Numbered from the stretch's first letter, positions 42,051 to 64,000 are shown. The stretch: DNA of 64,000 bases from Bacillota bacterium (GCA_049718765.1 JBNARI010000005.1:3999-67998), one strand, 5' to 3'. Notes: generated by a model not told the origin, from the sequence alone. A program made the numbers and translations.

Positions 42051-42051
42051 A

Positions 42052-46724: not shown

Positions 46725-46742
46725 TTCCATTTCAACCTGTTG

Positions 46743-47138: not shown

Positions 47139-48068
47139 TTAGCTCGAGCTGGAATAAAGCTTGTTGACCACAGCTATGTCGTGCTGAATTTGCCTTGCCA
47201 GAGCCCCAGCGTCGGCAAAAGCACGTTGCGGTCTCAGCCACTTCTTGAAACGCACTTCCACTGGAGTCCCGTAAAGCCAACCAGAGAAGCCGAGCACATG
47301 CACCTCCAGCAGTTCTGCGTTGGACCTAAACGTTGGCCTGGGTCCAAAGTTGGCCACCCCCAGCCATTTTCCTCCACTGACCATCACTTCCACCGCATAA
47401 ACGCCCCTGCGGGGCATAGTGATACCCTCAGGCCATATTAGGTTGGCTGTTGGGAAACCAATGGTCCTGCCCCTGCCGTCTCCCTCTTCGACCCTAGCTT
47501 CAACGCTAAAGGGCCTTCCAAGAAACTTTTCCGCACAATCCATTTGCCCACGCTTTATCAAATCCCTCACCAAACTGCTGGACACCACTTGCCCGTCAGC
47601 CACTACGGGCTCAACAACGTGAACTGAGATGCCTTTGGAGGAGCACAGCCTCATCAAGTCTCTGGCTGTGCCCGCAGCCCCACACCCAAAGGTGAAATTG
47701 AATCCAACAAACACTGCTGCTGCATTGAGCTCCCCTGCCACAACTTGGTCCACAAACCCTTCTGGGGTCATGCTCCCAAGCTGCTGGTCGAATTCCCTCA
47801 CGCACACCAAGTCAACCCCCAGGCCCCTCAAGAGCTCTACCCTTTTCTCCAGAGTGGTTATCCTCTCCACCTTACGCTTTGGACTAAGCACTTCCAGAGG
47901 GTGGGGGTCGAAGGTGAGCACCAAGCTCTTTAGGCGCTGCTGCCGGGAGTACTCCACCAGCCGCCTGATGATCTCTTGGTGACCAACATGCACCCCGTCA
48001 AAGAAACCTATTGCCAACGCACATTCAGCCCCGGCCGCAACCACCTGCACACCTCCGCACAGCTTCAT
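47139..48068 (-). CDS. ribF: Bifunctional riboflavin kinase / FAD synthetase
   Basis: FAD synthetase N-domain (GFFDGVHVGH) and riboflavin kinase C-domain (GRTIGFPTANL). The start was moved to MKLCGG, which removes the overlap with truB. Confidence 0.9.
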   Translation of the reverse strand: MKLCGGVQVVAAGAECALAIGFFDGVHVGHQEIIRRLVEYSRQQRLKSLVLTFDPHPLEVLSPKRKVERITTLEKRVELLRGLGVDLVCVREFDQQLGSMTPEGFVDQVVAGELNAAAVFVGFNFTFGCGAAGTARDLMRLCSSKGISVHVVEPVVADGQVVSSSLVRDLIKRGQMDCAEKFLGRPFSVEARVEEGDGRGRTIGFPTANLIWPEGITMPRRGVYAVEVMVSGGKWLGVANFGPRPTFRSNAELLEVHVLGFSGWLYGTPVEVRFKKWLRPQRAFADAGALARQIQHDIAVVNKLYSSSS

Positions 48069-48961
48069 GATAGTACCTTTTCCACTCGAATCATTCCCTT
48101 GCAGACAACTCCAATGGCGAATACCTCGCCACCCTCCCCGCACAGCAGCACACTGGTCCCATCAGGGAAGTCAACCCGGGCGCGCGGCGAGTTGCCGTTC
48201 CGGACCCTCCTGGTGTCGTCAGCGTGCAAAAGCACCCGTGGCATGTATTGTAGGGCCGAGTCAATGCCCACCAGGTAACCCCTGAGGCCAGTGCCAGGAA
48301 GGCAGGCTTCAAGCTCTTCTAATGGCACCGACTGGTCCACGTGGAAGTCACCCACAGCCACCCGTACCAGGAACGACACAAACCCACCGCATCCAAGCTC
48401 CTCTCCAAGGTCGCGGCACAGGCTTCGCACGTAAGTGCCACTGGAACATCGAATCTGAAAAACCCCTCTGGCAAAACGGCCTGGAAGGAAACTGAGCAGT
48501 TGGAACTGATCCACCCTTACCAAGCGCGTAGGCAACTCAGCCTGCTGGCCCCTGCGAGCAAGGCGGTACGACCTTTCCCCTTCAACAGAAACCGCACTGA
48601 AAACTGGGGGCTTTTGTGAGAAGACCCCCCTGAAGAGTCCCAGTTTTTCCTGTACGTGCTCCTCAGTCAAGCCTTCTGCCCCAGGTGCATACAGCACCTT
48701 CCCCTTCACGTCATCGGTGTCGGTGCGCGCCCCAAAGGTAAACTCAGCGCGGTAAACCTTGTCCAAGTTGCTCACATAATCTGCCAGCCTCGTAGCACGC
48801 CCAAGGCACAAAACGAGCACCCCTGTTGCCGCTGGGTCCAGGGTGCCCGTATGCCCGACTTTGGTACCAGGAGGCGCAAGCTTGCGCACCTTAGCAACGA
48901 CCTGGTGTGAGGTAAGTCCCACTGGTTTGAGCACGTTTATGAACCCGCTGAGTCCTTTCAT
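48065..48961 (-). CDS. truB: tRNA pseudouridine(55) synthase
   Basis: Catalytic motif GHTGTLDPAATGVL and a PUA-like C-terminus. Confidence 0.9.
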   Translation of the reverse strand: MKGLSGFINVLKPVGLTSHQVVAKVRKLAPPGTKVGHTGTLDPAATGVLVLCLGRATRLADYVSNLDKVYRAEFTFGARTDTDDVKGKVLYAPGAEGLTEEHVQEKLGLFRGVFSQKPPVFSAVSVEGERSYRLARRGQQAELPTRLVRVDQFQLLSFLPGRFARGVFQIRCSSGTYVRSLCRDLGEELGCGGFVSFLVRVAVGDFHVDQSVPLEELEACLPGTGLRGYLVGIDSALQYMPRVLLHADDTRRVRNGNSPRARVDFPDGTSVLLCGEGGEVFAIGVVCKGMIRVEKVLS

Positions 48962-49953
48962 AATCCCAAGACTGCAGCCACCCTGTCCACCACCACCCTC
49001 ACCACGTGTTCCAACTTTTGGCTGGTAATGGTACAGCCTGAAGCTCTAGGGTGGCCACCACCACCGAACTCCTCCGCCAGCTTGGCCACATCCACGTGCT
49101 TGCGGGAGCGAAAACCTACTTTAATTGAACCACCGGGCGTTTCCCGGAAAACAATCCCCACTTCCACCCCTCTAACAGACCTGGCGTAGTTCACAAGACC
49201 CTCTGATTCTTCCTCGGAGGCCCCTACTTTAGCCATCTCGTCCAAACTCAGGGTTATCCACGCAATCTTGCCACTCGGGTGGAGCTGCAGGTTGCCCAAA
49301 GCTACCCCCAGCAGTCTGAGGCTGCTTACTGACTTAGTTTCATACACATGTTCCGAAACCTCGTCGGGCTTGGCTCCGCTTTTGACTAGCTCTGATGCCA
49401 CTTCAAGGCAGCGGGCAGTTGTGTTGGAATAGCGGAAACTGCCCGTGTCTGTGCATACCGCAGTGTAAAGACAAGTGGCAACTGCTGGAGAAAGCTCACA
49501 GCCCATGGCCTTTATTAGGTAGAAAACCATTTCCCCCACCGACGAGGCAGTCGTGTCTACCCACCATATGTGGCCGAACCGCGTATTGGAAACGTGGTGA
49601 TCGATGTTAATCACAGTATGTGCAACCTGCAGAAGCTCCTCGCTTCCACGGCTTCTGGACATTTCGCCACAGTCGACCAGCACCGCGCAGCACCCCCGCG
49701 CGAATCCCAGGGGCACCTCCTCCGGCAAAAGCACTTCGGCTGCACCAGGCAGAAACCTGTACACTTCGGGAACCCCGTCTGCAGAAACCACAAACACCTG
49801 TTTACCTACCTGCCTGAGAACGGCAGCCAAAGCTAAAGAGCTTCCAATGGTATCACCGTCGGGCACCTCATGGGTGAAAACCAGAAACCGGGTGTTTTTT
49901 GCAATTTCCTCCACTATTTCCCGAATATACGTGGCATCAAGAGGTGCTGGCAT
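48958..49953 (-). CDS. nrnA: DHH-family bifunctional oligoribonuclease / pAp phosphatase NrnA
   Basis: DHH motifs (DHH at ...NIDHHVSN) and a DHHA1 domain (GGGHPRASG). Confidence 0.8.
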   Translation of the reverse strand: MPAPLDATYIREIVEEIAKNTRFLVFTHEVPDGDTIGSSLALAAVLRQVGKQVFVVSADGVPEVYRFLPGAAEVLLPEEVPLGFARGCCAVLVDCGEMSRSRGSEELLQVAHTVINIDHHVSNTRFGHIWWVDTTASSVGEMVFYLIKAMGCELSPAVATCLYTAVCTDTGSFRYSNTTARCLEVASELVKSGAKPDEVSEHVYETKSVSSLRLLGVALGNLQLHPSGKIAWITLSLDEMAKVGASEEESEGLVNYARSVRGVEVGIVFRETPGGSIKVGFRSRKHVDVAKLAEEFGGGGHPRASGCTITSQKLEHVVRVVVDRVAAVLGL

Positions 49954-50296
49954 TCTGATCTCCCTTTATTTGGTTGAGTATCTTGGATATTTCCACACCC
50001 TTTTCAATGGATTCATCCAGCTTGAACGAGATTTCCGGGGCATGGTAAATGCCCAGACGCCTAGTCACCTCGCTGCGAATGAAACCACAAGCACTTTTCA
50101 GCCCTTCCATAGTCTTTTTCTTTTGCTCATCTCCTCCCAGGACGCTCACAAACACCTTGGCGTGAGCCAAATCGCTGGAAAGCTCAACTCTAGTCACGCT
50201 GCAAAAGCCAATCCTGGGATCCTTCAGTTCCCGCTGGATCATTAGGGATATTTCTTCCTTCATGGCTTCAGCGAGTCTCTCCGCACGCATGGCCAT
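49937..50296 (-). CDS. rbfA: Ribosome-binding factor A
   Basis: 119 aa, KH-like fold, conserved RbfA sequence (...VTRVELSSDLAHAKVFVSV...). Confidence 0.9.
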   Translation of the reverse strand: MAMRAERLAEAMKEEISLMIQRELKDPRIGFCSVTRVELSSDLAHAKVFVSVLGGDEQKKKTMEGLKSACGFIRSEVTRRLGIYHAPEISFKLDESIEKGVEISKILNQIKGDQNASTS

Positions 50297-50310
50297 AGGT
50301 TATCCCCCGC

Positions 50311-50598
50311 TTAAACTATTCTAATGTTGTAGCTTGCAACATCGCCGTCGTGATTGTGCTCAATCCATTTTAGGACGTCTTCCAGAACCTGCTGTAACAG
50401 TTGCTTGTCACTGGATACAGTTGCTACGCCCAACGCACTCAGGCTGTAAGAGTCCAGATAGCCCACTTCGGCCACCCCAACGTTGTACCTGTGCCTGATT
50501 CTGTCCAGCAGGCTCTTGACGACCCTTCTCTTACCCTTCAGTGACTCGTTACACGGAATCGTGATTATTACTTCCAGGCTCCCTATGAACAACCTCAA
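50311..50598 (-). CDS. DUF503 protein (YlxP-like)
   Basis: 95 aa, at the conserved position between infB and rbfA. Confidence 0.75.
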   Translation of the reverse strand: MRLFIGSLEVIITIPCNESLKGKRRVVKSLLDRIRHRYNVGVAEVGYLDSYSLSALGVATVSSDKQLLQQVLEDVLKWIEHNHDGDVASYNIRIV

Positions 50599-52872
50599 TC
50601 AAGACGCGCGGACTTCTTCTATGCTGTAAACCTCCAGCGCGTCGCCCTCCTTTATGTCCTGGAACCGGTCAAGGCCCACCCCGCACTCGTACCCTGCAGG
50701 CACTTCCTTTACGTCTTCCTTGAACCTCTTAAGCGAGGCAATTTGCCCATCATATACCACCACGCCGTCCCTTATCACCCGCACGTTCATGTCCTTGATC
50801 ACTTTACCTTCGGTCACGTAGCAGCCCGCTACAGTGCCCACCTTGGGCACCCTGAATGTGGCTCTCACCTCTGCCCTGCCGTGGACCACTTCCTGCTTCT
50901 TAGGCTTGATCAGGCCCTTCGCGGCGCTCTCGATGTCGTCGATCAGCTCATATATCACTTTGTAGGTGCGCACTTCTATCCTGTGCTGCTCCGCTGCCTT
51001 GGCGGCATTGGCGTCAGGTCTTACGTTAAACCCCACAATGATTGCGTGGGAGGCAGCGGCAAGCATCACGTCGTTCTCAGTGATGCCACCAACCGCAGCG
51101 TGAATGACGTTCACCTTAACACCATGCACATCTACCTTGCTCAGGGCCTGCTTCACCGCTTCTATCGAGCCCTGCACGTCTGCCTTCACAATAACGTTGA
51201 GCTCGGTCACTTCGCCTTCCTTGGCCTTATCAACCAGCTCCTCCAGGCTCACCCTGTGGAATGCAAGGAACTGTTGCTCACGAGCCTTCTTGGCGCGAAG
51301 CTCGGCTACTTCCTTGGCCACCTTTTCAGACTCCACTACCTGCAGCACGTCCCCTGCCCCTGGCACGCTCGCCAGCCCAATCACTTCCACAGGTACCGAA
51401 GGCCCCGCGTGCTTGATGCGCCGTCCCTTGTCGTCCATCATGGCGCGCACCCTACCGTATGTTGTACCACATACTATGGCATCGCCCACGTTCAGGGTGC
51501 CCCCTTGGACCAGCACGGTGGCGACTGGACCTCTGCCCTTGTCAAGCCTGGCTTCTATGACCACCCCGTGTGCCTTCTTGTCGGGGTTTGCCTTGAGCTC
51601 CAACATGTCCGCCACAAGCAATACCATCTCCAAGAGCTGGTCCAGGTTGGTCCTTTGTCTGGCAGAAACCGGCACACAAATAACGTCACCACCCCAGTCC
51701 TCTGGAACTAGCCCAAGCTCTGCAAGTTGGCCCTTCACCCTGTCAGGTTTGGCAGTGGGCTTATCGATTTTGTTCAACGCCACGATTATAGGTACCTTGG
51801 CTGCGCGAGCATGGTTTATTGCCTCAACAGTCTGGGGCATGACCCCGTCGTCAGCAGCCACTACCAGCACCGCAATATCGGTCACCTTGATCCCCCTTGC
51901 CCTCATGGCTGTAAAGGCCTCGTGGCCGGGGGTGTCAAGGAAAACGATCTTCCTGCCGTTCACCTCAACCGTGGACGCGCCAATGTGCTGGGTAATCCCT
52001 CCAGCCTCCTGAGCAGTAACCCTCGTTTGGCGAATTGCGTCCAGCAGCGACGTCTTACCGTGATCCACGTGACCCATCACGGTGACAACCGGCGGACGAG
52101 GTTTGAGCTTATCAGGAGGATCAGGCGCATTTAGTTCCTGGCGAAGTTTCTCCTCCAAGCTCAGCTCAGGCTGTTTTTGGACCACCTCGAAGCCCAGCTC
52201 TGCAGTAACGACTGCCGCCGTGTCCGCATCCAGGGTTTGGTTAATGGTTGCCATAACCCCAAGGGACATGAGCTTCTTGATGAGCTGAGTTACTGGAATC
52301 CCCGTCTTTTGGGCAAGCTCCTTCACTGTCAGAGAACCCTCGATTGTAACGCTCTTCGGCCTTTCCTCGACTGCCGCCTTCTGAGCTTGGAGCGTCTTTG
52401 GAACTCCCGCTGGGCGAGCTGGCATCGCAGGCCGGGTTTGTCGTACAGTTACCTGTTTCTGAGCAGCAGGCATCGGGGCCGCTGCAGCACCACTTCGCAC
52501 GTTTCCAGGCTTACCTGGCTGGACGCTGATAGTGCTGCTCCGAGCATCGACTGACCGGCCCCCAGGCTGACCCTTCTTTTGCTGTTGCGCTTGTTGGGAG
52601 GCTTGCTGCTGCACGTGTTGTTGAGTCTGCTGCTGTTGCGCCCCACGTGCCTCAGAGGGTGCAGGGCGCGGCTTAGCCTGTTTTGCTTCCCTCTTTTGTT
52701 CTGCCTTCTTTTTGCCTGCCACTGTATCCTTTACCAGCTGCACGGCTTCCGAGGAGAGGGTGCTCATGTGGTTCTTCACTTGTATCCCTGCATGGGCCAG
52801 CACGTGAATTACGGTCTTGGAGCTGATCCCAAGTTCCCTGGCCAGCTCGTAAACTCTAATCTTGTCAGACAT
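50599..52872 (-). CDS. infB: Translation initiation factor IF-2
   Basis: GTPase domain ([21 protein letters not shown]) and the C-terminal beta-barrels. The start was taken at [14 protein letters not shown]. Confidence 0.95.
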
Positions 52873-53161
52873 TTTGGCCACCCCCTTTGGCAACTTCCAT
52901 TACCCTCGCTTGAAGTTGCTCTACCAAGTCGGGGGGCATATCTACCTCCAGCGCCTTGGAAAGCCTTGCCGACTTCACTGCTTCCATTAGGCAAGAGCCA
53001 GAAGCACAAATGTATGCGCCTCTGCCTGACTTCTTGCCCGTGGGATCCACCACTACTTGGCCGTCAGGCATCCGAACCACTCGGATGAGTTCCCGTTTGG
53101 GCTTCCTTGCCCCACAGCCGACGCAACTTCTAATTGGCACTTTCCTTTGCTTCACGATCAC
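52865..53161 (-). CDS. YlxR-family (DUF448) RNA-binding protein
   Basis: RSCVGCG...KxELIR motif ([20 protein letters not shown]). Confidence 0.85.
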
Positions 53162-54228
53162 ACCTGCTTCCCTAGCCCGGCTTCTTCAGATTCCCTGACC
53201 ACCTGGCTCTCGCTCCTTATGTCTACCTTCCATCCCGTGAGCTTAGCGGCAAGCCTTGCGTTTTGCCCTTCCTTGCCTATGGAAAGGGACAGCTGGTTGT
53301 CTGGTACCACAACCCGCGCAACGCGTGTGACGGGATCGCAGGTAACTGAAATCACCTTCGCGGGGCTCAATGCGTTGGCAATGAACTTTTCAGGCTGTTC
53401 ATCCCAACGAACCACATCAATCTTTTCTCCCCGCAGCTCGTTGACTATGTTTTGTATGCGCAGTCCCTTGGGACCAACTACAGCTCCCACTGGGTCAACG
53501 TTGGGGTCCCTGGCTCGTACCGCCACTTTCGATCTGGTTCCAGGTTCCCTCACAATGCCCTTTATTTCCACGATGCCCTCGTGTACTTCTGGCACCTCCA
53601 GCTCAAGCAGCCTCTTGAGCAGACCTGGGTGGGTTCTAGAAATGCTCACCTGAGGGCCCTTTGTTGTGCGCTTCACTTCCAGGATATAAACCTTGATCCT
53701 GTCGCCGTGCTCTAATTTCTCTGAAGGGATTTGCTCGTTGGGCGGCAGCAACGCCTCGAGCCGACCCAAGTCCACAACCACGTTCTTGCTGTCGGCTCTC
53801 TGAACAGTCCCAGTGACGATGTCCCCTTCCTTGCTGGAAAACTCTTCGTAAATCACACCGCGCTCCGCCTCTCTGATCCGCTGGAGCACCACCTGTTTGG
53901 CAGTCTGAGCGGCAATCCTGCCGAAGTTACGGGGAGTGACTTCCGTTTCCACAACGTCTCCCGGCTTGTAAGCAGGGGACATCTTCCTGGCCTCATCCAG
54001 GGAAATCTCTGTCCTGGGATCCTTCACCTGCTCCACCACTGTGCGTCTGGAGAACACCTTTACTTCTCCCGATTCCCTGTCCATCCTTATGCGCACGTTT
54101 TGAGCAGTGCCGAAGTTCCTTTTATAAGCGGAAATGAGAGCGGCTTCAATTGCCTGAATCAGCACCTCTTTGTCTATTCCCTTTTCCCGCTCAAGGTCAT
54201 CTAAAGCTTTTATCAAGTCCTCGCTCAT
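53158..54228 (-). CDS. nusA: Transcription termination/antitermination factor NusA
   Basis: N-terminal domain, S1 and two KH domains. The start was taken at MSEDLIKALDDL. Confidence 0.95.
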   Translation of the reverse strand: MSEDLIKALDDLEREKGIDKEVLIQAIEAALISAYKRNFGTAQNVRIRMDRESGEVKVFSRRTVVEQVKDPRTEISLDEARKMSPAYKPGDVVETEVTPRNFGRIAAQTAKQVVLQRIREAERGVIYEEFSSKEGDIVTGTVQRADSKNVVVDLGRLEALLPPNEQIPSEKLEHGDRIKVYILEVKRTTKGPQVSISRTHPGLLKRLLELEVPEVHEGIVEIKGIVREPGTRSKVAVRARDPNVDPVGAVVGPKGLRIQNIVNELRGEKIDVVRWDEQPEKFIANALSPAKVISVTCDPVTRVARVVVPDNQLSLSIGKEGQNARLAAKLTGWKVDIRSESQVVRESEEAGLGKQV

Positions 54229-54728
54229 GGGTGCCGCCCCTCTTCGAACATTGAAATGTCGTCTATGTCGTCTTTGAGCCTCACAGAACAAACGCCCCTT
54301 CGGTCGAAGTGGCGAAGCTCACCGCTGGATTCTTCCACAATTGAAATGGTGTCAGGGTCACAAGCATCCAGCCGGCCAACGAACTTCTTGGCCCCGTAAA
54401 ACTCCTTGTAGGTCCTGACCTCTACCCTCCGCCCCTTAAAAGCGGCGAACTCCCTGTCCCGTTTGAGTTTCCGGTTAAGGCCAGGTGAAGACACTTCCAG
54501 GTAATAGGTCTCTTGGATCGGGTCCACCTGGTCAAGGAGTTGCTCAAGCTGTCTGGACACGAGCTCACAGTCATCCAGGGTAACGCCCCCAGGTTTGTCC
54601 AGGGTTACCCGCAGGATTCTCCTCCCGCCCTCTTTGACCAGCTCTACGTCGACAAGGGTTAGGCAAGCGGCGTCCGCTATGGGTTGCGCCAGCTGGAATA
54701 CAGTGTCCTCAATCTCGCGAACACCCAT
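54225..54728 (-). CDS. rimP: Ribosome maturation factor RimP
   Basis: Conserved RimP N-terminus (...LVDVELVKEGGRRILRVTLDKPGGVTLDDCE...). Confidence 0.9.
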   Translation of the reverse strand: MGVREIEDTVFQLAQPIADAACLTLVDVELVKEGGRRILRVTLDKPGGVTLDDCELVSRQLEQLLDQVDPIQETYYLEVSSPGLNRKLKRDREFAAFKGRRVEVRTYKEFYGAKKFVGRLDACDPDTISIVEESSGELRHFDRRGVCSVRLKDDIDDISMFEEGRHP

Positions 54729-54740
54729 AACAATCCCCTA

Positions 54741-54775
54741 CTTCTTCAAACAAAGAGTGGGTGTTAAACCCACTC
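54741..54775 (-). terminator. Hairpin plus U-tract in the rimP-nusA-infB leader (terminator/attenuator)
   Basis: Perfect 8-bp inverted repeat gagtgggt/acccactc with a 5-nt loop, followed on the minus-strand RNA by UUUGUUUGAAG, 26 nt upstream of the rimP start. Confidence 0.5.
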
Positions 54776-54862
54776 CCAAATCGACCACAGTTTACCGTTA
54801 ACCTGCTCAGGCTTAGTATACCACCAACTGGCAGGAACCATCAAGCAACGCTTGGACGCAAT

Positions 54863-55726
54863 CTAGCCCGCCAATTCCAGTACCTTCACCGCTAACAACG
54901 GGTCACCAATTGGGAACAAATGGACGCTTCTTCCCAGGCGACGAATTTGGGATATGAGTTCTGCACCAATCTTCAGTCCCTCGTTGGGCGACCCCTTGAG
55001 CATCCGTTCTTCTACCTCTTTGGGAATCACAATTCCAGGCACTTTGGCCTTCAGGTAATTCATGCTCTTGCTGCTTTTCAATGGGAGCACCCCGTAGAGT
55101 ACCTTCAAGCCTAAACCTTCGGCTATCCTGTGGAACTGTTCCACGACCTCAACGTCGAATACTGGCTGGGTCTGAGCAAACCTGGCACCGGCCTCCACCT
55201 TAGCCTTAAGCTTTGCCAGCTCCACGTCAGAGCTCACAACTGCGTTGGGATTGACAGCAACCCCAATGAAGAATTGGGTTGGGCAGTCCAGGGGCCTACC
55301 GGCATAACACAAACCCTGGTTGAGCTTGCTGGCCAGCGCAACCAGCCCAGTAGAGTCCACCTCATACACCGGCATGGCACTTGCATGATCTCCCCGTTCT
55401 GGCCTATCTCCAGACAGCGCCAGCAGGTTCTTAACCCCCAACGCCGCAGCTCCAAGCAGTTCCGCCTGTAGCCCCAACACATTTCGGTCCCTGCAAGTAA
55501 GGTGGAACACCGTTTCAACCCCCAGCACCTCCTGAACCAGGTGGGCAAGGGCAATCGGGCTCATCCTGAGATTCGCCATAGGGCAATCCGCAACGTTGAT
55601 CGCATCAACATATCCCTGAAGGCACCTTACTTGCTCCAGCGTGGGTGTGGGATTCCACCCTCGGGGTGGGTCAACTTCCACAGTGACAGTGAACTTGCCG
55701 TTGTTCAGCTTGCACCGAAGGTCCAC
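54863..55726 (-). CDS. metF: 5,10-methylenetetrahydrofolate reductase
   Basis: TIM-barrel MTHFR family, 287 aa, immediately downstream of metH. Confidence 0.85.
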   Translation of the reverse strand: MDLRCKLNNGKFTVTVEVDPPRGWNPTPTLEQVRCLQGYVDAINVADCPMANLRMSPIALAHLVQEVLGVETVFHLTCRDRNVLGLQAELLGAAALGVKNLLALSGDRPERGDHASAMPVYEVDSTGLVALASKLNQGLCYAGRPLDCPTQFFIGVAVNPNAVVSSDVELAKLKAKVEAGARFAQTQPVFDVEVVEQFHRIAEGLGLKVLYGVLPLKSSKSMNYLKAKVPGIVIPKEVEERMLKGSPNEGLKIGAELISQIRRLGRSVHLFPIGDPLLAVKVLELAG

Positions 55727-55731
55727 CGCTC

Positions 55732-58137
55732 TTACTCTCCTTCTTCCAGCCCTTGCTTTGAGCCGCCAGTTATTGATAACACCAGTTCAGCCGCTCCTGC
55801 AGCGTCTTTGGCGTATCCGTCTGCGCCAATAGATACGGCGTATTCTTGGGTGAGCACTCCGCCACCCACGATAACCTTCTTGTTGGGCCAGCGAGCCTTC
55901 ACAGCTCTGACAGTGCGTTCCATTGCAGGAAGGGTGGTGGTCATGAGCGAGCTTAGGCCAACCACGTCAGCCGAAGATGCCGCGTCTACAATTGCAGCTA
56001 TCGGAACGCTTTTCCCTAGATCAACCACCTGGAAGCCCCTGCTTTCCAGCACCGCGCATACTATGTTCTTGCCCACGTCGTGGATGTCCCCTTCAACTGT
56101 GGCCATGGCAACCCTGGCCCTCTTTCGAAGGGACGTCCCAAGCCTGGGCCTCAGCACTTCAAGACATTTCTTTGCAGCTTCTGCTGCAAGGAGCAGATTC
56201 GGAATAAAGAACACCCTCTGCTCAAATAGCCTACCAGCTTCCTCCATTGCCCTGGTAACGCCACTTTCAAGCACCTCTATCGGGCTCAAGCCGGCTTCAA
56301 GCGCTCCCATCACCCACTGCACCGCAGCCTCGCCGTTCCCGTCCAGCACCGCCTGGCGCAGCCGCCCCATAGGGTCGCTGGCCTCTTGGGAACGGTCGAC
56401 TGGCGCAGCCATAGCCTTAATGTAGCCCTGGCAGCCTGGATCTCGAGCCGCCAGTAGTGCCCCCGTCACCAGCGCTTGCTGTATTTCAGGTGAACAGGGG
56501 TCAGCAATTGGGGCGTCCAGTCCAGCACTGCATGCAGCAGTGAGGAATGCCCCGTTGAGCACTGGCCTTGAAGGTAGACCATGGGATATGTTGCTTATTC
56601 CTGCACAAGTGAGTAAACCCTGGCGGTGCAATTCCTTAATACACCCCAGGCACTTCTCTGCCGCAAAGGGATCTGTGGAAAGGGGAGTTACTGCTGGGTC
56701 AACCAGCACTAACTGCCGTGGCACCCCAACCCCCTCAAGTTTGGAGAGCATATCCCGCACCAATGAGAGCCTTCCCTCCACACTGTCGGGAACCCCCTGG
56801 GTTGTGCTGGGCAATACCACAACCGCTGCGCCAAAACGCTTTGCCAACCTTGCGCCGACGCTGAACAGGGGCTCTTCCAGCCGTAACGAGTTCAGAACTG
56901 GCCTCCCTCTGAACTCCTTCAGCCCCGCTTCGAGCGCTTGGAGGTGCGAAGAGTCTATGAAGCACGGACCATCCCAGACGCCTTGCACAGCGTGAACCAG
57001 CGAACGCATCAGGCTAGCGTGGTCCTGCCCTGGAATGTCGGCAGCCAAGTCAAGGGCCACAGCTCCACACTTGACTTGCTGCCTTGCCTCGGTCATCACA
57101 AGTTCAAACTTTTTTGACACCATGTCTTGCCTGAGGGCCCGTTTCCTGGCAGGATTTATCCTTTCCCCGACGATCACAGGAGACCCGAGCAGTTCCAACC
57201 TGGCAGCCCTGCCTGAACCGCAAATCTGCAGGGCTTCTCCAGTTGTGGATTGAGCCTGTTCCCTTGCTTCAATGTCCATGCGCTTAGCCAAACTCTCACC
57301 CAAACCCCTAATGTGCTCAGGTGTGGAACCGCAACACCCACCGATGAGCGACGCCCCAAACTCCACGAGCTTCGCTGTAGCAGTCCACCACGCTTGTGGG
57401 TCTTTCCATTCGTTCTTTCCCGGAACGCCAGCATTGGGCCGCGCAATCAGCGGTACCCGGCTCATCCTCCTCATCCTAGCAATCACGGCCGCAAGCTGAT
57501 CAGGACCAGTTGAACAGTTTGCACCCACCGCCAGGGCGCCAAGGGACTCAAGGGTAATGGCGGCGCACTCGGGGGATACCCCCATGGTGGTGCTCCCACC
57601 CTCGAAAGTCATGGTGCAGGCCACTGGCAAGCCCTCGTCGCGGCATGCCAGCACTGCCGCCTTGGCTTCGAGCAAGTCCGACATGGTCTCCACCAGTACC
57701 CCATCGGCGCCTGATTCCGCCAGGGCCCGTGCTTGCTCTCGGTACGCCTCGTAGGCCGCGTCAAAACAAATTGGTCCCACAGGGCTCATTAGCTGACCCG
57801 TTGGGCCCATGGAAGCAAGCACCGTCACATCGGACCTGCCTTCTTCCTGGCATGCCCTGCGGGCAAGCTGCACAGCAGCCACGTTAAGGGCCCTTGTTTT
57901 CCCCTCATGCCCAGTCAGGGACAGCTTCAAGGGGTTTGCACCGAACGTGTTGGCAAGCAGCACCTTTGCCCCAGCTCGAAGGTAGAGCCTGTGTACTGTA
58001 CACACATGCTCAGGCAACTCGAGATTGGCCAGCTCAACAGGCTCACCTGGGCGCACTAACCCAACTAGCATCGTGCCCATGGCCCCGTCCATCAGCACCG
58101 GACGTGAGCGGGAAACTTCAATCACTCGCTCTATCAC
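55732..58137 (-). CDS. metH: Cobalamin-dependent methionine synthase lacking the reactivation domain (Hcy-binding, pterin-binding and B12-binding modules)
   Basis: Hcy S-methyltransferase domain, pterin-binding TIM barrel, a B12 cap and the DxHxxG motif (GDIHDVGKNIV); 801 aa. Confidence 0.9.
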   Translation of the reverse strand: MIERVIEVSRSRPVLMDGAMGTMLVGLVRPGEPVELANLELPEHVCTVHRLYLRAGAKVLLANTFGANPLKLSLTGHEGKTRALNVAAVQLARRACQEEGRSDVTVLASMGPTGQLMSPVGPICFDAAYEAYREQARALAESGADGVLVETMSDLLEAKAAVLACRDEGLPVACTMTFEGGSTTMGVSPECAAITLESLGALAVGANCSTGPDQLAAVIARMRRMSRVPLIARPNAGVPGKNEWKDPQAWWTATAKLVEFGASLIGGCCGSTPEHIRGLGESLAKRMDIEAREQAQSTTGEALQICGSGRAARLELLGSPVIVGERINPARKRALRQDMVSKKFELVMTEARQQVKCGAVALDLAADIPGQDHASLMRSLVHAVQGVWDGPCFIDSSHLQALEAGLKEFRGRPVLNSLRLEEPLFSVGARLAKRFGAAVVVLPSTTQGVPDSVEGRLSLVRDMLSKLEGVGVPRQLVLVDPAVTPLSTDPFAAEKCLGCIKELHRQGLLTCAGISNISHGLPSRPVLNGAFLTAACSAGLDAPIADPCSPEIQQALVTGALLAARDPGCQGYIKAMAAPVDRSQEASDPMGRLRQAVLDGNGEAAVQWVMGALEAGLSPIEVLESGVTRAMEEAGRLFEQRVFFIPNLLLAAEAAKKCLEVLRPRLGTSLRKRARVAMATVEGDIHDVGKNIVCAVLESRGFQVVDLGKSVPIAAIVDAASSADVVGLSSLMTTTLPAMERTVRAVKARWPNKKVIVGGGVLTQEYAVSIGADGYAKDAAGAAELVLSITGGSKQGLEEGE

Positions 58138-58139
58138 CG

Positions 58140-58745
58140 CTAATCCCCTCGCTCTGGTTCAGCTGGAAACAGGGGGATGATCCCCAGCACCGATTTGCGT
58201 GGCAACAGCAGCCCTTCAGACCTAACCTGTATCCCCAGCTCCCAACCGTGGGAGTCTTGGAGCAAGACGTGATTTGCCTCAAGGGGCCAGCCCGAATACC
58301 CAGGGCTCAACCGGAACTTGGCAATGAGTCCCCTTTGCCTTGCCTCTCGGCCCACTTCCAGCTGCACGCGGCGCGCCACCGCCTCTGCACCTGCCGAACC
58401 CCACGCATCCGTCACTGCAGCAAGGGCATGGCTTTCGCTCAGGAACAGTTGGGAAATCACCTTGTCCACGTCGGCACCCAAGGTGGCTGAAAAACAGACC
58501 AGGTGCACAGCTCCCCGAACGCGCTCCTTGATTTTTTCGGAGAGCTTGTACCTGACGGGATCCACCTCGCACCAAGAGAAACTCCCAGCAGGGCGCGCAG
58601 CTCCTTCCACAAGCGCCAGCCCTTCCCTCAGCAAGCCCTCAACCGCTTCACTGAGAAGGCTTACGCCCTGCCTGTAACCTAAGTAGCGCAATGCCTCTGA
58701 CCTGTTCACTTGGATTTCTTGCCACTGCAGCTTCAGGATCGCCAT
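58140..58745 (-). CDS. Stand-alone methionine synthase activation (AdoMet-binding reactivation) domain protein
   Basis: 201 aa matching the MetH C-terminal activation domain (...LRYLGYRQG...). The start overlaps the polC stop by 13 nt. Confidence 0.75.
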   Translation of the reverse strand: MAILKLQWQEIQVNRSEALRYLGYRQGVSLLSEAVEGLLREGLALVEGAARPAGSFSWCEVDPVRYKLSEKIKERVRGAVHLVCFSATLGADVDKVISQLFLSESHALAAVTDAWGSAGAEAVARRVQLEVGREARQRGLIAKFRLSPGYSGWPLEANHVLLQDSHGWELGIQVRSEGLLLPRKSVLGIIPLFPAEPERGD

Positions 58746-61700
58746 AGGCTCATTTGACTAGTTTCTGGCACACCCGCAAGGCATCCTTCCGCCCTGAGCA
58801 GTTCAATCAGGCTCTTGGACAGCTTGGTGCGAGCTTTGAACTCCTCAATTGAGCCGAAGGGTTTCTCCCCCCGGGCCGAAGCAATGGTGGACGCAGCTGC
58901 TGTGCCAAGGCCCGGGATTGCCACAAGGGGTAGCCGTATTCCGTTGGGTTCTATTATACACTTCCAGGGATGCGAAACGTATATGTCCACAGGAAGGAAC
59001 TGAACGCCCCTTGCAGCCATTTCCTGAGCAACCTCGAGCAACATTTGGGTTTCCTTTTCCTTCGCGGACGCCTCGCTGCCCTTGGAAGCAATCTCCTCGC
59101 ACTTGCGCGCCCAAATCCTGGGGCCACCCTTGAGCAAGGTGTAGTCAAGGGCATCCGAGTGGAGGCTGAAGTACATTGCGTAGAAAGCCTTGGGATGATG
59201 CACCTTGAAATAAGCAATCCTGAAACACATCATTACGTAGGCCACTGCGTGTGCCTTAGGGAACATGTACTTGATCTTCTTGCAGGACTCAATGTACCAA
59301 CCAGGAACGCCTGCTTCTCGCATGGCGGCTTCATGTTCTGGTAACAAACCCTTCCCCTTGCGGACGTTTTCCATAATGGCAAAGGCCTGGCTTGGCTCGA
59401 GGCCCTTCGAGATGAGAAAGGTCATGATGTCGTCCCTAGTGCAAATCACTTCCCCTAACCTTGCAATCCCCTGCTTGATCAAATCCCTAGCATTGCCCAA
59501 CCAAACGTCTGTACCGTGGGACAGGCCAGATATCCTGACCAAGTCCGCAAAGCACTGGGGTCTAGTTTCCACGAGCATTTGCCTGACGAACTTGGTGCCA
59601 AACTCGGGTATGCCTAACGTGCCAACTTCCACCGAGTAACTCCCGTTTAAGTTGAGGGGTTCAGGACTCGAAAATAGCTTCAAAGTCATGGGGTCATTGA
59701 AAGGGACGGTCAATGGGTCGATCCCTGTGTACTCGTGCAGCAACTTCAGGGCAGTGGGGTCATCGTGGCCCAAAATGTCCAGCTTCACGAGGCGGCTGGA
59801 TATGGACTCATAATCGAAATGGGTTGTCACCACTCCCGATTCCCTGTCATCTGCGGGGTACTGTACGGGAGTGAACTCGAGCACATCGCATCCGGCAGGC
59901 ACAATCATTACCCCGCCTGGGTGCTGGCCCGTGGTGCGCTTGACCCCTGTTATTCCCCGGGCGAGACGTTCGACCTCTGCCTTCCTCAGCACCAGGCCCT
60001 TAGACTCAGCGTAAGCCCGAACCAAGCCGTAGGCGGTCTTGTCTGCCACAGTTGCAATTGTGCCGGCCCTGAAGACGTTCCCCCGCCCCAGCAGCTCCTC
60101 TGCGTACCTGTGAATGGTGGATTGGATCAGCCCCGAGAAATTCAAGTCGATGTCGGGCACTTTGTCTCCCTTGAACCCCATAAACACCTCAAAAGGAATG
60201 TCATGGCCATCGCCAAGCATCTGGGCCCCGCATCGGGGACACTGCTTCGGTGGAAGGTCGAAGCCCGACCCGTGGCTAGAATTTGGAAACTCTGAGTACT
60301 TGCACTGAGGGCACAGGTAGTGAGGAGGCAGCGGGTTCACCTCTGTGATTCCAGTGAGCCTGGCCACCAGCGAAGATCCCACTGAACCCCTGGAGCCAAC
60401 TAGGTAACCTTCTTCCACAGACTTGTGCACCAGCTTCTGGGCAATCAGGTATATAACGCTGAAACCGTGCTTCTGGATGGCGTCAAGTTCCTTCTCAAGC
60501 CTTTGGCGCACTGGTTCAGGCAACGGCGACCCGTAAAGTTTCTCCCCCTCTTCCCTGGCTAGCTGCGCAATCATTTGGTCCGCGTTTTCAATCTTGGGAG
60601 CATGTAAGCCCCTTGGAACGGGCTCCACCGCTTGAACCATTTCCGCCACCGCCGCAGGACCGTCAATCACCACTTGCCGTGCCAATGCTTCACCCAGGTA
60701 GCTGAACTCTTCCAGCATTTCTTGGGTGGTGCGAAGGTATAGGGGTGCGGGCTGCTCCGCGTGGTCGTTCCCCCTGCTCGCCATGAGCACCTCTCTGTAA
60801 ACGCCTTCTTGGGGTTCCAGGAAGTGGACATCACAGGTGGCCACGACAGGTACTCCTAGTGCCATGGCCAGCTCCACGATGGTTCGGTTTATTTGACGGA
60901 GCTCGTCTTCGTCGCGCACTTTGCCCTCGCCCACGAGGAAGCTGTTGTTTGCCACCGGCTGGATTTCCAAGTAGTCGTAAAACCCTGCAATTTCCTTCAA
61001 TTGCACCAGGCCTTTCCCTTGGAGTATGGCCTGGTAAAGCTCCCCCGCCTGGCATGCAGAACCTACTAGCAGGTGAGACCTGTTGTCCTGGAGCAAGGCA
61101 CGGGGAATCCTTGGCACCCTGTGAAAGAAGCGCAAGTGGGACTCGGACACCAACCTGTAGAGCTGACGCAAACCCTCCTTGTCCCTTGCCAACAATATGA
61201 CGTGGTGAGGCTTCTGGTCTCGCCAGTTGTCATCTACAAGGTAGCCCTCTACGCCGAATATCAGCTTTATGCCGGTACGCTCGGCCTCTTCGAAAGCACC
61301 AGGGAAAGCCTGCACCACACCATGATCTGTAATGGCCACGCAACGGTGCTGCCACGCAGAAAGCAGGTTGAACAACTTGGGTATTGCCACAACAGAATCC
61401 ATAGCTGACATTACAGTGTGCAAGTGGAGCTCCACCCTTTTCTTTTGGCATGTGTCCTTCCTGAAATGGGCCTCCACATTGCGCACACGTTCCGCAACGC
61501 AAACGGCTTCCCCTTCGTACTTGTCCTCCACAATTGTGCCGGATACCTCTACCCAGCCCCCCTCTTGCAAGTCAACTTTCTCAGCCGCGGAACCCGGCAA
61601 CACCTTGACAAACACGGTATCCGACCCGTCTGTGAGGCCGAACCGCACAGCCCTCTTGCCATTCCGGAACGGCACTTCCGTGGGGAAAAGCACCATGCCC

Positions 61701-62221
61701 CTGAGGGTGGCCTGCATTCCCACCTTGAGGTCCTGCACCCTGCACGCCGGGGCACCGCAGTTCTCCTGGACGTGCACTTTCCACTGACCACCCATCACTC
61801 GCTTCAAGCAACTTTCAACGCACTCCAGCAAGTCGTGCTGATCCAAGAACTCGGTAGGAACTCCCGCTTTGGGCTTCAAGTGCACTGTTCCCAGGTCAAA
61901 TTCAGCGTCGCACTTGGAAAGCACGTCTCCCAGCACTGGGTTTTGGCCTTGAACAAGCTCGACCACTCGGCGCCACAGCTCTTGGACGTTTTCCCACACT
62001 GGCTCTACCTGCGCAGTACACATGCGGCACAGCACGCGGAGGAGCCCGTCCACTTCTTGGGATGTAGGCTTATCCCAGGAAATCAGGTGGACCCTCCATT
62101 TGCCTGTCGGGTCCACCTCTATGCCCCGCAGCCACAGGGCCGCACGTTCCATGGTTTCCCTGGGACAGCCGGCAAGTTCTGAAAGGCGCGCCATGTCCGG
62201 ACGCACTAACACCGACGCCAA
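58733..62221 (-). CDS. polC: DNA polymerase III alpha subunit, PolC type, apparently without the inserted 3'-5' exonuclease domain
   Basis: PolC N-domain and OB fold, PHP domain (HLHTVMSAMDSV, ITDHGVVQAF), the PolC zinc finger (CPQCKYSEF...CPRCG) and polymerase core (GSRGSVGSSLVA, DIDLNF). The exonuclease insertion expected after GVEGYLVDD is absent; length is 1162 aa. Confidence 0.9.
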   Translation of the reverse strand: MASVLVRPDMARLSELAGCPRETMERAALWLRGIEVDPTGKWRVHLISWDKPTSQEVDGLLRVLCRMCTAQVEPVWENVQELWRRVVELVQGQNPVLGDVLSKCDAEFDLGTVHLKPKAGVPTEFLDQHDLLECVESCLKRVMGGQWKVHVQENCGAPACRVQDLKVGMQATLRGMVLFPTEVPFRNGKRAVRFGLTDGSDTVFVKVLPGSAAEKVDLQEGGWVEVSGTIVEDKYEGEAVCVAERVRNVEAHFRKDTCQKKRVELHLHTVMSAMDSVVAIPKLFNLLSAWQHRCVAITDHGVVQAFPGAFEEAERTGIKLIFGVEGYLVDDNWRDQKPHHVILLARDKEGLRQLYRLVSESHLRFFHRVPRIPRALLQDNRSHLLVGSACQAGELYQAILQGKGLVQLKEIAGFYDYLEIQPVANNSFLVGEGKVRDEDELRQINRTIVELAMALGVPVVATCDVHFLEPQEGVYREVLMASRGNDHAEQPAPLYLRTTQEMLEEFSYLGEALARQVVIDGPAAVAEMVQAVEPVPRGLHAPKIENADQMIAQLAREEGEKLYGSPLPEPVRQRLEKELDAIQKHGFSVIYLIAQKLVHKSVEEGYLVGSRGSVGSSLVARLTGITEVNPLPPHYLCPQCKYSEFPNSSHGSGFDLPPKQCPRCGAQMLGDGHDIPFEVFMGFKGDKVPDIDLNFSGLIQSTIHRYAEELLGRGNVFRAGTIATVADKTAYGLVRAYAESKGLVLRKAEVERLARGITGVKRTTGQHPGGVMIVPAGCDVLEFTPVQYPADDRESGVVTTHFDYESISSRLVKLDILGHDDPTALKLLHEYTGIDPLTVPFNDPMTLKLFSSPEPLNLNGSYSVEVGTLGIPEFGTKFVRQMLVETRPQCFADLVRISGLSHGTDVWLGNARDLIKQGIARLGEVICTRDDIMTFLISKGLEPSQAFAIMENVRKGKGLLPEHEAAMREAGVPGWYIESCKKIKYMFPKAHAVAYVMMCFRIAYFKVHHPKAFYAMYFSLHSDALDYTLLKGGPRIWARKCEEIASKGSEASAKEKETQMLLEVAQEMAARGVQFLPVDIYVSHPWKCIIEPNGIRLPLVAIPGLGTAAASTIASARGEKPFGSIEEFKARTKLSKSLIELLRAEGCLAGVPETSQMSLWRS

Positions 62222-62243
62222 CTCGAAGCACTCCCCGTTGGTT

Positions 62244-62870
62244 TCAGCCCTTTTGCACAGTTTTGAGGATGTCCAGATACATCTTCAGGCGAGCCTGCAA
62301 GCCCTTGGCAAAGCCCATCTTTTCTTCCTTCATCAGGTGGCTTACACCTTTCAGTGGCACCTCCACTACCTTGAGCCCTGCAGCCCGCGCGTACCTAGTG
62401 AGCGCAATCTCCACCCCGAACCTGGTGATCTCAATCTCTGAAAGCTGGCATAGCAATTCCCTTCGAACTGCCCGTTGCCCGGAGAGGAATGGTGCAATTG
62501 TCTGAGCTAGGTCCGTGGCAGCCCTGCCCCGCTCAAACACCCCAAGGGTCATTTCGGCTTCGCCGTTTATTACCGGCTCAGCAAGGGCGCTAACGTGATG
62601 GGGTTCTAAACCAATCAAGTCAGCGTCAAGGAACACCACGGGGTCCCCATGGGTGTTCCTCACTCCGTGCATCATAGCTGCACCTTTTCCCATGTTGCGG
62701 CTCAGCCTCAGCACCTTTGCGCCAGCAGCTCTGGCAACAGCTGAGGTGCGGTCCTCTGAACCATCGTCAACCACCACCACCTCGCAAACCCCTGGAGCTG
62801 CCCAAGCAGCACGCACTACAGCCCCAACGGTCTTCTCTTCATTGAAGGCAGGAACGATCACACAGAACAA
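62244..62870 (-). CDS. Family 2 glycosyltransferase (short, GpgS/DPM-synthase-like)
   Basis: GT-A fold N-terminus (CVIVPAFNEE, VVVDDGSED) and a DAD motif (FLDADL). Confidence 0.75.
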   Translation of the reverse strand: MFCVIVPAFNEEKTVGAVVRAAWAAPGVCEVVVVDDGSEDRTSAVARAAGAKVLRLSRNMGKGAAMMHGVRNTHGDPVVFLDADLIGLEPHHVSALAEPVINGEAEMTLGVFERGRAATDLAQTIAPFLSGQRAVRRELLCQLSEIEITRFGVEIALTRYARAAGLKVVEVPLKGVSHLMKEEKMGFAKGLQARLKMYLDILKTVQKG

Positions 62871-63923
62871 TCAACCTTCCCCCAGTTCCTCCGCTAGTTC
62901 TGCCAACGCCTTGGCCGCCTCCTCTTCTGGAACAACTGCAACCTCCCGTCCCCTGGCGAAGAGCACCGCTCGGCCAACCCCGCAGGCTATCCCAACGTCA
63001 GCATGTCTGGCTTCGCCAGGACCATTGACAGCACACCCCATGACGGCCACCCGCAAGGGCCTCTTCACGTGGGCAAGACGCCGCTCCACCTCTGCCACAA
63101 TGGCTGGCAAATTCACGTGGCACCGCCCGCAAGTGGGGCAGCTGATTATTTCAACGCCAGGAACGGGCTGACCGCAAGCCCTGAGGATCTCGTAGGCCAC
63201 CCTTACCTCCTCCACTGGGTCCCCGGTCAGGCTGACTCTAACAGTATCTCCAATGCCCTCGAGCAGAAGCGCCCCAATGCCAACGGCTGACTTCACAACC
63301 CCAGCCCTGCCGGCACCCGCCTCAGTCACACCCACGTGGAGCGGGTAGGGAATTCTGCTCGCGGCCAACCTGTATGCCTTTACCGTGTCAGCCACAGAGG
63401 ACGACTTCAACGACACAACCAGGTTGTCAAAGCCAAGGTCTTCTATGAATTTTATCCACTCTTGGCAGCTTTCCACCATAGCTTCAGCAGTGGGGCCACC
63501 ATGCCTTTCCAGCACCGACCGCTCCAATGAGCCGCTGTTAATCCCAAGCCTGATGGGCACGCCAAAGCGGGAGGCAGCAGCTATGACTTTCTCCATGGCG
63601 CCCTTGCCCCCAATGTTGCCAGGGTTAACCCTAACCTTGTCCACACCAGCCCGGATTGCCTCAACCGCAAGATCCGGGTCGAAATGAACGTCCGCCACCA
63701 GGGGTACGTCAGTACGTTCCCGTATGGCCTTCAGCGCTCCCACAGTGGACCTGTTGGGCAAGGCAACCCTCACAATTTGGGCACCCGCCCCATGAATTGC
63801 TGCAATTTGCCTGAGCGTTGCCTCTATATCATCGGTGGGTGTCTTGGCCATCCCTTGGACCACTACAGGATTGTCGCCCCCGATCCTGACGCCTCGCACA
63901 ACCACGCTTTTTTGCGAGCCCAT
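62871..63923 (-). CDS. ispG: 4-hydroxy-3-methylbut-2-enyl diphosphate synthase (flavodoxin)
   Basis: GcpE family with its C-terminal 4Fe-4S cysteines (CPTCGRC...GCAVNGPGE); 350 aa. Confidence 0.9.
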   Translation of the reverse strand: MGSQKSVVVRGVRIGGDNPVVVQGMAKTPTDDIEATLRQIAAIHGAGAQIVRVALPNRSTVGALKAIRERTDVPLVADVHFDPDLAVEAIRAGVDKVRVNPGNIGGKGAMEKVIAAASRFGVPIRLGINSGSLERSVLERHGGPTAEAMVESCQEWIKFIEDLGFDNLVVSLKSSSVADTVKAYRLAASRIPYPLHVGVTEAGAGRAGVVKSAVGIGALLLEGIGDTVRVSLTGDPVEEVRVAYEILRACGQPVPGVEIISCPTCGRCHVNLPAIVAEVERRLAHVKRPLRVAVMGCAVNGPGEARHADVGIACGVGRAVLFARGREVAVVPEEEAAKALAELAEELGEG

Positions 63924-63930
63924 CCTGCCT

Positions 63931-64000
63931 CACATCCCTAGCCTTTCTATGTCCCTCACAAGTATTACGGCTCCCGCGGCAATCAGCAGTATGAAACCCA
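63931..64000 (-). CDS. rseP: RseP/RasP site-2 zinc metalloprotease, C-terminal end (partial)
   Basis: Reverse translation gives ...GFILLIAAGAVILVRDIERLGM*, which matches the RasP C-terminus (...GFALL..L....NDIQR..). The stop lies 8 nt before the ispG start. Confidence 0.6.

Follow-up and report, generated by a model that had tools for sequence, protein, structure and literature searches.

A PolC-type DNA polymerase III of a Bacillota bacterium that has an intact PHP metal site and no integral DEDDh exonuclease

PolC replicases without the integral exonuclease (hereafter, exo-less PolCs) have been described by Timinskas et al. (NAR 2014, online 2013; PMC3919608), who reported that 6% of PolCs have no Exo insertion. 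All of these proteins came from PolC+DnaE1 genomes of Clostridia and Negativicutes, where they made up 16%, and one Thermotogae genome carried an extra exo-less copy. The PHP metal site of exo-less PolCs was found to be conserved in the same study, and proofreading by the PHP domain alone has already been hypothesised for them in print. The study of Akashi & Yoshikawa 2013 did not address exo-less PolC.

Here, we focused on the polC gene in a 64-kb stretch of DNA (64,000 nucleotides; hereafter, the window) from a MAG of a Bacillota bacterium. The ORF encodes 1162 aa counting its TTG start, which is preceded at 9 nt by a GGGGAG Shine-Dalgarno sequence, and the product was 100% identical to the NCBI protein P0001, titled 'MAG: PolC-type DNA polymerase III [Bacillota bacterium]', whose model starts 3 codons downstream (1159 aa). 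The sequence itself is new, the nearest relative having 79% identity and named species about 55%. The features of the gene are as follows.

58733..62221, minus strand: polC, exo-less PolC-type DNA polymerase III alpha (ORF list, translation, NCBIfam equivalogs)
61760..62128, minus strand: PolC-specific N-terminal domain, diverged, residues ~32-154 (HMM match, 42 bits)
61487..61708, minus strand: OB domain, residues 172-245, N-terminal to PHP (weak Pfam match, 3F2B alignment, AF2)
60662..61432, minus strand: PHP domain, uninterrupted, residues ~264-520, with nine metal ligands (Pfam PHP, 1.6e-27)
61205..61228, minus strand: 8-residue linker NWRDQKPH, residues 332-339, at the exonuclease insertion site (DNA and translation)
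60230..60313, minus strand: zinc finger CPQC...CPRC, with C637, C640, C661 and C664 (sequence)
59330..60574, minus strand: polymerase core (palm, thumb, fingers), residues 550-964, with catalytic D690, D692 and D815 (Pfam)
58769..59008, minus strand: tandem helix-hairpin-helix (HhH) domain, residues 1072-1151 (Pfam HHH_6, 5e-14)
58742..58756, minus strand: C-terminal beta-clamp-binding-type motif QMSLW, residues 1156-1160 (sequence)

The product scored well above the cut-offs of both NCBIfam PolC equivalogs, with 1388.5 bits for NF001688 (cut-off 873; match split in two stretches) and 1300.6 bits for TIGR01405 (cut-off 1043.45), and far under the own cut-offs of all DnaE models. All modules were present: the N-terminal domain, OB, PHP, zinc finger and polymerase core, which the initial annotation had listed, and also HhH and the clamp motif. 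Pfam found PHP, DNA_pol3_alpha (1.7e-54), DNA_pol3_finger (2.3e-24) and HHH_6. The N-terminal domain had no match to Pfam NI/NII and was recognised (42 bits, E=3.5e-15, Z=1) by an HMM made from this region of 113 further PolCs, from which the query and its close relatives were left out. The OB assignment combines a Pfam tRNA_anti-codon match under the cut-off (E=3e-4) with an alignment to G. kaustophilus PolC 3F2B that begins at residue 172 and a beta-barrel at 169-248 in the AF2 model; its position N-terminal to PHP is the PolC topology, whereas in DnaE the OB is C-terminal. In an alignment of 45 exo-less PolCs (residue numbers one lower than ORF numbering), all four zinc-finger cysteines, the catalytic aspartates and the PDIDLN and KLDILGHDD motifs were invariant. 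The Q of the clamp-type motif was also invariant and the L-F nearly so, the query having W instead of F. We take QMSLW to be the clamp motif by its likeness to the known PolC QxxLF motif.

No counterpart of the DEDDh exonuclease was detected in this protein. The linker NWRDQKPH replaces the ~200-residue domain of canonical PolC, and the junction reads GVEGYLVDD-NWRDQKPH-HVILLARDKEG in a single continuous frame. PF00929 had no match in the product even at E<=1, in the same Pfam analysis that found PHP. The listed stretch of the NF001688 match joined query residues 332-1160 to profile positions 608-1444, and in the alignment with the full-length PolC 9QPC the blocks ended at 432 and resumed at 632, so about 200 residues were skipped. 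In the multiple alignment, the insert columns held 220-225 residues in exo-containing proteins versus 21-41 in exo-less ones. A custom HMM built from 56 exo-containing homologs gave nothing at maximum sensitivity in the six frames of the window (best E=1.8), and the Exo I/II/III motifs (DxE, NxxxD, HxxxxD) in an RNase-T fold were found neither in the ORF nor in the whole window. In the AF2 model (mean pLDDT 87.5), the junction was built as a strand (318-328), a short loop and a second strand (338-344) with pLDDT of 88-93. The best structural match was 3F2C/3F2B, the G. kaustophilus PolC crystallised with its exonuclease deleted by design (target-normalised TM 0.89), the full-length 9QPC was matched more poorly (0.75), and no DEDD fold was among the structural matches. 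The claims of the initial annotation that the exonuclease is absent, that only 8 residues stand in its place and that this is not a frameshift artefact were thus borne out, the architecture being the same in relatives. In canonical PolC the DnaQ-like domain is inserted in a PHP-domain loop; here that domain would have been removed cleanly, with a loop of 8 residues in its place and every other PolC module retained.

Since the PolC-group features were found and the integral DEDDh exonuclease was absent, the product is by its sequence a member of the PolC group and of its exo-less sub-variant. We hold this architecture and classification to be close to certain.

The initial annotation regarded such a PolC as unusual for Firmicutes, and this did not stand, given the published examples (PMC3919608) and the frequency among the homologs we profiled. 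Among the 120 best homolog clusters, 64 were exo-less, and among 80 species-level loci 18 were; the loci came from a genome-contig scan that returned relatives of at most 57% identity. The exo-less clusters included isolates of Thermanaeromonas, Heliorestis, Methylomusa and Thermoclostridium. Cultured species with an exo-less PolC include Thermanaeromonas toyohensis, Heliorestis convoluta, Sporomusa ovata and Thermoclostridium stercorarium. The exo-less PolC is a known, ordinary variant, common in clostridia-like or anaerobic Firmicutes. In a neighbour-joining (NJ) tree of the 120 homologs the exo-less proteins did not form one clade, with a minimum of 9 state changes (gains or losses); this is a quick distance tree, and the exact number is not relied on. 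No residues separated exo-less from exo-containing PolCs at strict thresholds, and six weak ones did at loose thresholds. The complete linker NWRDQKPH was common only to the query and its two closest relatives.

The genomic context was largely that of the canonical chromosomal polC, as the initial annotation had proposed, but a GT2 glycosyltransferase gene separates ispG from polC, a met cluster of three genes (a 201-aa ORF, a metH-like gene and MTHFR) intervenes between polC and rimP, and rseP lies past the end of the window and was seen only in the relative L081. The locus of this relative, which encodes a 79%-identical exo-less PolC, agreed with the window in every gene from ispG through infB and continued upstream to tsf and rseP, both past the window end. 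Pfam detected no dnaE among the ten largest other ORFs of the window or the polC neighbours that were scanned. An Rfam scan of the window returned nothing.

The 201-aa ORF lies directly downstream of polC, overlaps its stop and had no family match in Pfam or NCBIfam. As a candidate split-off DnaQ it was rejected: its match was 1J6R (E=4.5e-8), the MetH reactivation-domain protein that stands alone in T. maritima, which places the ORF in the neighbouring metH-metF cluster rather than in replication.

These data also bear on whether the gene could be an assembly artefact with a deletion, a pseudogene or a paralogue beside a full-length PolC elsewhere. The source is a MAG of which 64 kb were seen, and the extra Thermotogae copy is a precedent for a paralogue (PMC3919608). 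Against this, the ORF was continuous with all motifs intact, the junction NWRDQKP recurred in relatives of 79% and 73% identity whose assemblies are independent, the synteny was that of the canonical polC locus, and dozens of exo-less orthologs were found, some in complete isolate genomes. We consider an artefact or paralogue very improbable.

To describe the PHP site, we verified the ligand positions in an alignment with Taq Pol III alpha (2HPI) and with 3E0D, the D->N PHP mutant of that enzyme. All nine ligands (HHDHEHCDH) were present in the query: H266, H268, D275, H300, E325, H340, C390, D464 and H466. The pLDDT of the domain was mostly 84-97 and fell to 69 at residues ~481-490. The set was complete in 64 of 64 exo-less clusters and in all 17 complete exo-less loci; the exo-containing loci that deviated from it (n=9) were all Bacilli with D->N. 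Judged by sequence identity, the PHP domain and the polymerase core are about equally conserved: to P0002 the values are 83% and 91%, and to the exo-less proteins as a whole 57% and 65%, respectively.

What the site does may be suggested by related enzymes. The PHP exonuclease of Mtb DnaE1 requires these nine residues (PMC5636811). HHDHEH[C/H]DH serves as the criterion of an active PHP in PMC12926913, which classes the PHP of Clostridia PolC as 'active'. In C. thermocellum PolC, the change C669Y at the residue equivalent to C390 gave a ~30-fold mutator (10.1101/2021.07.30.454558); this could be indirect if the change disturbs the structure of the neighbouring exo domain or of the polymerase. 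The G. kaustophilus PolC has 8 of the 9 ligands and reportedly no PHP exonuclease activity (PMC5636811), therefore intact ligands are necessary but may not be sufficient. No biochemical assay of an exo-less PolC was found in the literature searched.

As an observation on the site itself, only 14 residues lie between E325 and H340. The corresponding loop, which lines the substrate groove, has 29 residues in Mtb DnaE1, and this shortness speaks against PHP proofreading in the query, as does the lack of exo-less-specific residues, which might have been a sign of adaptation to PHP-only editing.

The initial annotation had offered two ways to make up for the missing domain, a trans-acting DnaQ or reduced fidelity, and left out the option that we find best supported, the PolC's own PHP domain with its nine intact ligands. 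The trinuclear metal centre of this domain would edit the products of PolC in the 3'-5' direction, as it does in Mtb DnaE1 and Thermus Pol III alpha, and the enzyme would probably work in a PolC+DnaE1 replisome like those of other clostridia-type Firmicutes. By this analogy, we lean towards PHP-domain proofreading as the mechanism in exo-less PolC. We slightly favour the broader idea that PHP is the sole cis-acting proofreader in exo-less lineages and that the canonical DnaQ insert is a redundant add-on, its repeated shedding being suggested by the ~9 transitions in the NJ tree.

Alternatively, a separately encoded DnaQ/epsilon-like DEDDh exonuclease could dock on PolC and proofread in trans, which is the mode of E. 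coli DnaE1. Bacterial proteomes average more than 3 stand-alone DnaQ homologs (PMC12926913), so a candidate is probably somewhere in the genome, of which only 64 kb were seen. However, no DEDDh-like ORF was found in any frame of the window, and the 18 exo-less species loci had none in the 10 kb on either side of polC; across the 80 related loci, the custom exonuclease HMM matched only inside exo-containing polC genes. The epsilon-binding patch, moreover, belongs to DnaE1 and is not known for PolC (PMC3919608). We therefore regard proofreading in trans as quite doubtful.

A further possibility is that PolC has become a lower-fidelity or subsidiary polymerase, with a DnaE1 that has an intact PHP doing the bulk of accurate replication and mismatch repair cleaning up, so that loss of the exonuclease domain is tolerated. 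Timinskas et al. raised this possibility (PMC3919608), and the many gains or losses of the insert in the NJ tree suggest that the domain has been repeatedly dispensable. The query nevertheless retains its canonical locus and the full set of catalytic, zinc-finger, HhH and clamp-type motifs, with an identity to its ortholog of 79% overall and 91% in the polymerase core, which argues for an essential, constrained enzyme; nor is strict retention of the PHP ligands expected under relaxed fidelity. A subsidiary PolC thus seems unlikely, and it is compatible with PHP proofreading, the two not being exclusive. Overall, the explanation we judge reasonably probable is that an uncultured Bacillota bacterium has this ORF as its true chromosomal PolC, a natural exo-less variant of the kind already described, in which the PHP domain would proofread.

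As a discovery the architecture has little weight, having been published in 2013/2014 and being visible in database annotations. The question it raises is how a PolC replicase without DEDDh maintains fidelity, with PHP, help from DnaE1 and a trans-acting exonuclease as candidates. The query and other naturally exo-less PolCs whose PHP site is perfect would be good material for tests of PHP proofreading in the PolC family, and would also be useful for asking which polymerase replicates bulk DNA in PolC+DnaE1 organisms. If PHP is indeed the sole cis proofreader, PolC editing would resemble that of mycobacterial DnaE1.

Compared with known systems, the query is closest to the exo-less PolCs of Clostridia and Negativicutes (PMC3919608), with the same architecture without the Exo insertion, the nine conserved PHP ligands, the junction flanks GxEGYLVD...YHxILLA and an origin in a lineage of Firmicutes (Bacillota) that is akin to Clostridia-type organisms. 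There is no difference in kind, only its own sequence and linker. With Mtb DnaE1 (PMC5636811) and Thermus Pol III alpha (Stano et al. 2006) it shares the nine-residue trinuclear site and the absence of an integral DEDDh domain from the polymerase chain. It differs in polymerase group (PolC versus DnaE1), its PHP activity is putative, and its E and H ligands are separated by a much shorter loop, of 14 residues versus 22 in Taq and 29 in Mtb. With canonical PolC (B. subtilis; G. kaustophilus 3F2B; 9QPC) it shares the N-terminal domain, OB, PHP, zinc finger, Pol III core, HhH and clamp-type motif, and the ispG...polC...rimP-nusA-infB neighbourhood; identity to the G. kaustophilus enzyme is 50%, at the target-normalised TM of 0.89. 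The canonical enzyme carries the ~200-aa DEDDh exonuclease, which the query does not, and position D464 is D in the query and N in the Bacilli enzymes. The query is in effect the natural counterpart of the engineered delta-Exo construct with which G. kaustophilus PolC was crystallised.

The PolC encoded in the window (1162 aa, hereafter the query) lacks the DnaQ-like DEDDh exonuclease that exo+ PolCs carry as an insert in the PHP domain. The following features of the locus are discussed.

58733..62221, minus strand: polC ORF, 1162 aa, real and continuous
58742..58756, minus strand: clamp-binding-type motif QMSLW at the C-terminus of the query (Q-x-x-L-F in relatives)
54863..58745, minus strand: methionine/folate cluster of three genes between polC and rimP (201-aa ORF, MetH-like, MTHFR)
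62244..62870, minus strand: GT2-family glycosyltransferase, 208 aa, between ispG and polC (closest NCBIfam family glucosyl-3-phosphoglycerate synthase, far below the cut-off)

The start codon of polC is TTG with GGGGAG 9 nt upstream. NCBI lists the identical protein, already annotated as "PolC-type DNA polymerase III", with a start three codons further on. The junction reads GVEGYLVDD-NWRDQKPH-HVILLARDKEG in an unbroken frame. The initial annotation had proposed that the exonuclease is missing, and the profile search, the Geobacillus kaustophilus alignment and the inspection of a close relative that it suggested all agreed with this. Pfam models for PHP (264-414), DNA_pol3_alpha, the finger domain and HHH_6 matched the query (OB was sub-threshold), and PF00929 (RNase_T/DnaQ) had no match even at E<=1. 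The query gave an end-to-end alignment with 3F2B, a G. kaustophilus PolC from which the exonuclease had been removed by design for crystallisation. The alignment to full-length PolC (9QPC) stopped at residue 432 and restarted at 632, thus ~200 residues are absent from the query. An HMM of the insert, made from 56 exonuclease-containing homologs and with the expected FVVFDLETTG, AHNASFD and HHRAVDDA motifs in its consensus, was searched at maximum sensitivity against six frames of the 64-kb window and gave nothing better than E=1.8; the window holds neither a remnant nor a relocated copy of the domain.

The query is firmly within the PolC equivalogs, scoring 1388 bits for NF001688 (cut-off 873; matched in two stretches, the listed one placing query 332-1160 on profile 608-1444) and 1300 bits for TIGR01405 (cut-off 1043). 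All other PolC modules are retained. Residues 32-154 scored 42 bits against an HMM made from the N-terminal domains of other PolCs, and OB precedes PHP, the order of PolC and unlike that of DnaE. The cysteines of the Cys4 zinc finger (C637, C640, C661 and C664) and the catalytic Asp residues of PDIDLN and KLDILGHDD do not vary across 45 aligned exo-less PolCs. The QMSLW motif ends in W, at a position that is F in at least 90% of exo-less relatives. A confident AlphaFold2 model based on the 45-sequence alignment (mean pLDDT 87.5, pTM 0.72) has two strands (318-328 and 338-344) joined by a short loop at the junction (pLDDT 88-93). Among solved structures the model comes closest to the delta-Exo G. 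kaustophilus PolC (3F2C/3F2B; target-normalised TM 0.89, 50% identity), and no DEDD fold was among its structural matches.

The gene order on the same strand (ispG, GT2 glycosyltransferase, polC, 201-aa ORF, metH-like, MTHFR, rimP, nusA, infB) is that of a canonical chromosomal polC locus. A metagenomic relative with a 79% identical PolC (L081) has exactly this order, extended upstream by tsf-pyrH-frr-uppS-cdsA-dxr-rseP, and its junction reads NWRDQKPY. Given that synteny and junction are conserved in independent assemblies, it is very unlikely that the exo-less gene is an artefact or a paralogue.

The relative also keeps the glycosyltransferase in the same position and the same met cluster between polC and rimP. 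The MetH-like protein (801 aa) has Hcy, pterin and B12 domains without the activation domain. The 201-aa ORF had no family match in Pfam or NCBIfam and matched 1J6R, the stand-alone MetH reactivation-domain protein of T. maritima (E=4.5e-8), thus MetH is split in this cluster. The 13-nt overlap between the start of the ORF and the stop of polC (58733-58745) is suggestive of co-transcription or translational coupling with polC. Leaders and riboswitches often lie near ribosomal-protein and met genes; an Rfam scan of the window (1..64000) found no family at the gathering score (no tRNA, rRNA, riboswitch or leader), including around these genes.

The insert was absent from 64 of the 120 best homolog clusters, whose insert columns hold 21-41 residues vs 220-225 in the 56 exo+ proteins. 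Exo-less isolates with complete genomes include Thermanaeromonas toyohensis, Heliorestis convoluta, Methylomusa anaerophila, Anaeroselena agilis and Thermoclostridium stercorarium, and Limnochordia and Syntrophomonadaceae MAGs also belong to this set. A scan with one genome per species found 18 exo-less loci among the best 80, including Thermosyntropha, Dehalobacterium, Desulfitispora and several Lachnospiraceae. With these frequencies, and the variant being described by Timinskas et al. (PMC3919608), the initial wording "unusual" was too strong.

A quick NJ tree, computed after masking the insert, required at least nine changes of state, thus the exo-less forms do not make up a single clade but are scattered. 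Both groups share the flanks GxEGYLVD ... YHxILLxKN, indicating clean excisions. Two homologs stood apart. A Firmicutes-type polC without the exonuclease, 52% identical to the query, lies on contig JBLNBO010000054.1, from a MAG labelled "Ignavibacteriales bacterium"; PolC is not known from that phylum, so the contig is probably mis-binned. A protein of 1865 aa (P0004, ENA contig of 27,484 bp) with exo, NI and OB domains exceeds canonical PolC by ~400 residues and could be a fusion or gene-calling run-through.

Repeated exonuclease losses would fit the possibility, raised by Timinskas et al. (PMC3919608), that PolC is relaxed or subsidiary and DnaE1 the main replicase; however, every catalytic and PHP residue is strictly kept, which argues against loosened constraint. 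A DnaQ homolog may instead proofread for PolC in trans, for which the genome, seen over 64 kb only, leaves room, but neither the window nor the related loci lend support, as no DnaQ-like ORF was found within 10 kb of polC in the 18 exo-less loci. The initial annotation had offered a trans-acting DnaQ-like proofreader or reduced fidelity, and had left out the PHP domain, whose nine metal ligands are intact.

These ligands (H266, H268, D275, H300, E325, H340, C390, D464 and H466; HHDHEHCDH) were verified by aligning the query with Taq Pol III alpha (2HPI) and its PHP mutant 3E0D, whose D->N mutations fall in the columns of D275 and D464. All nine are retained by 64/64 exo-less clusters and by 17/17 complete species loci of the exo-less type, and conservation of the PHP domain is roughly that of the polymerase core. 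The sole deviations among exo+ loci were nine D->N cases, all in Bacilli and shared by G. kaustophilus PolC and 9QPC. They affect the eighth ligand (HHDHEHCNH) in 9/9 retrieved Bacilli loci (L053, L060, L063, L066, L068, L072, L073, L076 and L080); every clostridia-type PolC, exo-less or exo+, keeps D there, a clean class-level split. The PHP proofreading exonuclease of M. tuberculosis DnaE1 has a trinuclear zinc centre made up of these nine residues, and the PHP of G. kaustophilus PolC, in which one of them is replaced, is reportedly inactive (PMC5636811). Venclovas and colleagues used the nine-residue motif as the criterion for an "active" PHP and classed that of clostridial PolC as active (PMC12926913). 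Based on the intact, conserved ligands and this literature, we favour proofreading in cis, in which the PHP domain of the exo-less PolC would act as the proofreader within a PolC+DnaE1 replisome. Caveats are the following: the E325-H340 loop at the former insertion site has 14 residues vs 29 in M. tuberculosis DnaE1, and no residues separating exo-less from exo+ PolCs were found.

The exo-less PolC itself is already known. Timinskas et al. found such PolCs only in Clostridia and Negativicutes, bar one extra copy in Thermotogae, and all in PolC+DnaE1 genomes (16% there without the internal exonuclease), with all nine PHP positions strongly conserved in the PolC group (PMC3919608). The query is one further member of this variant.
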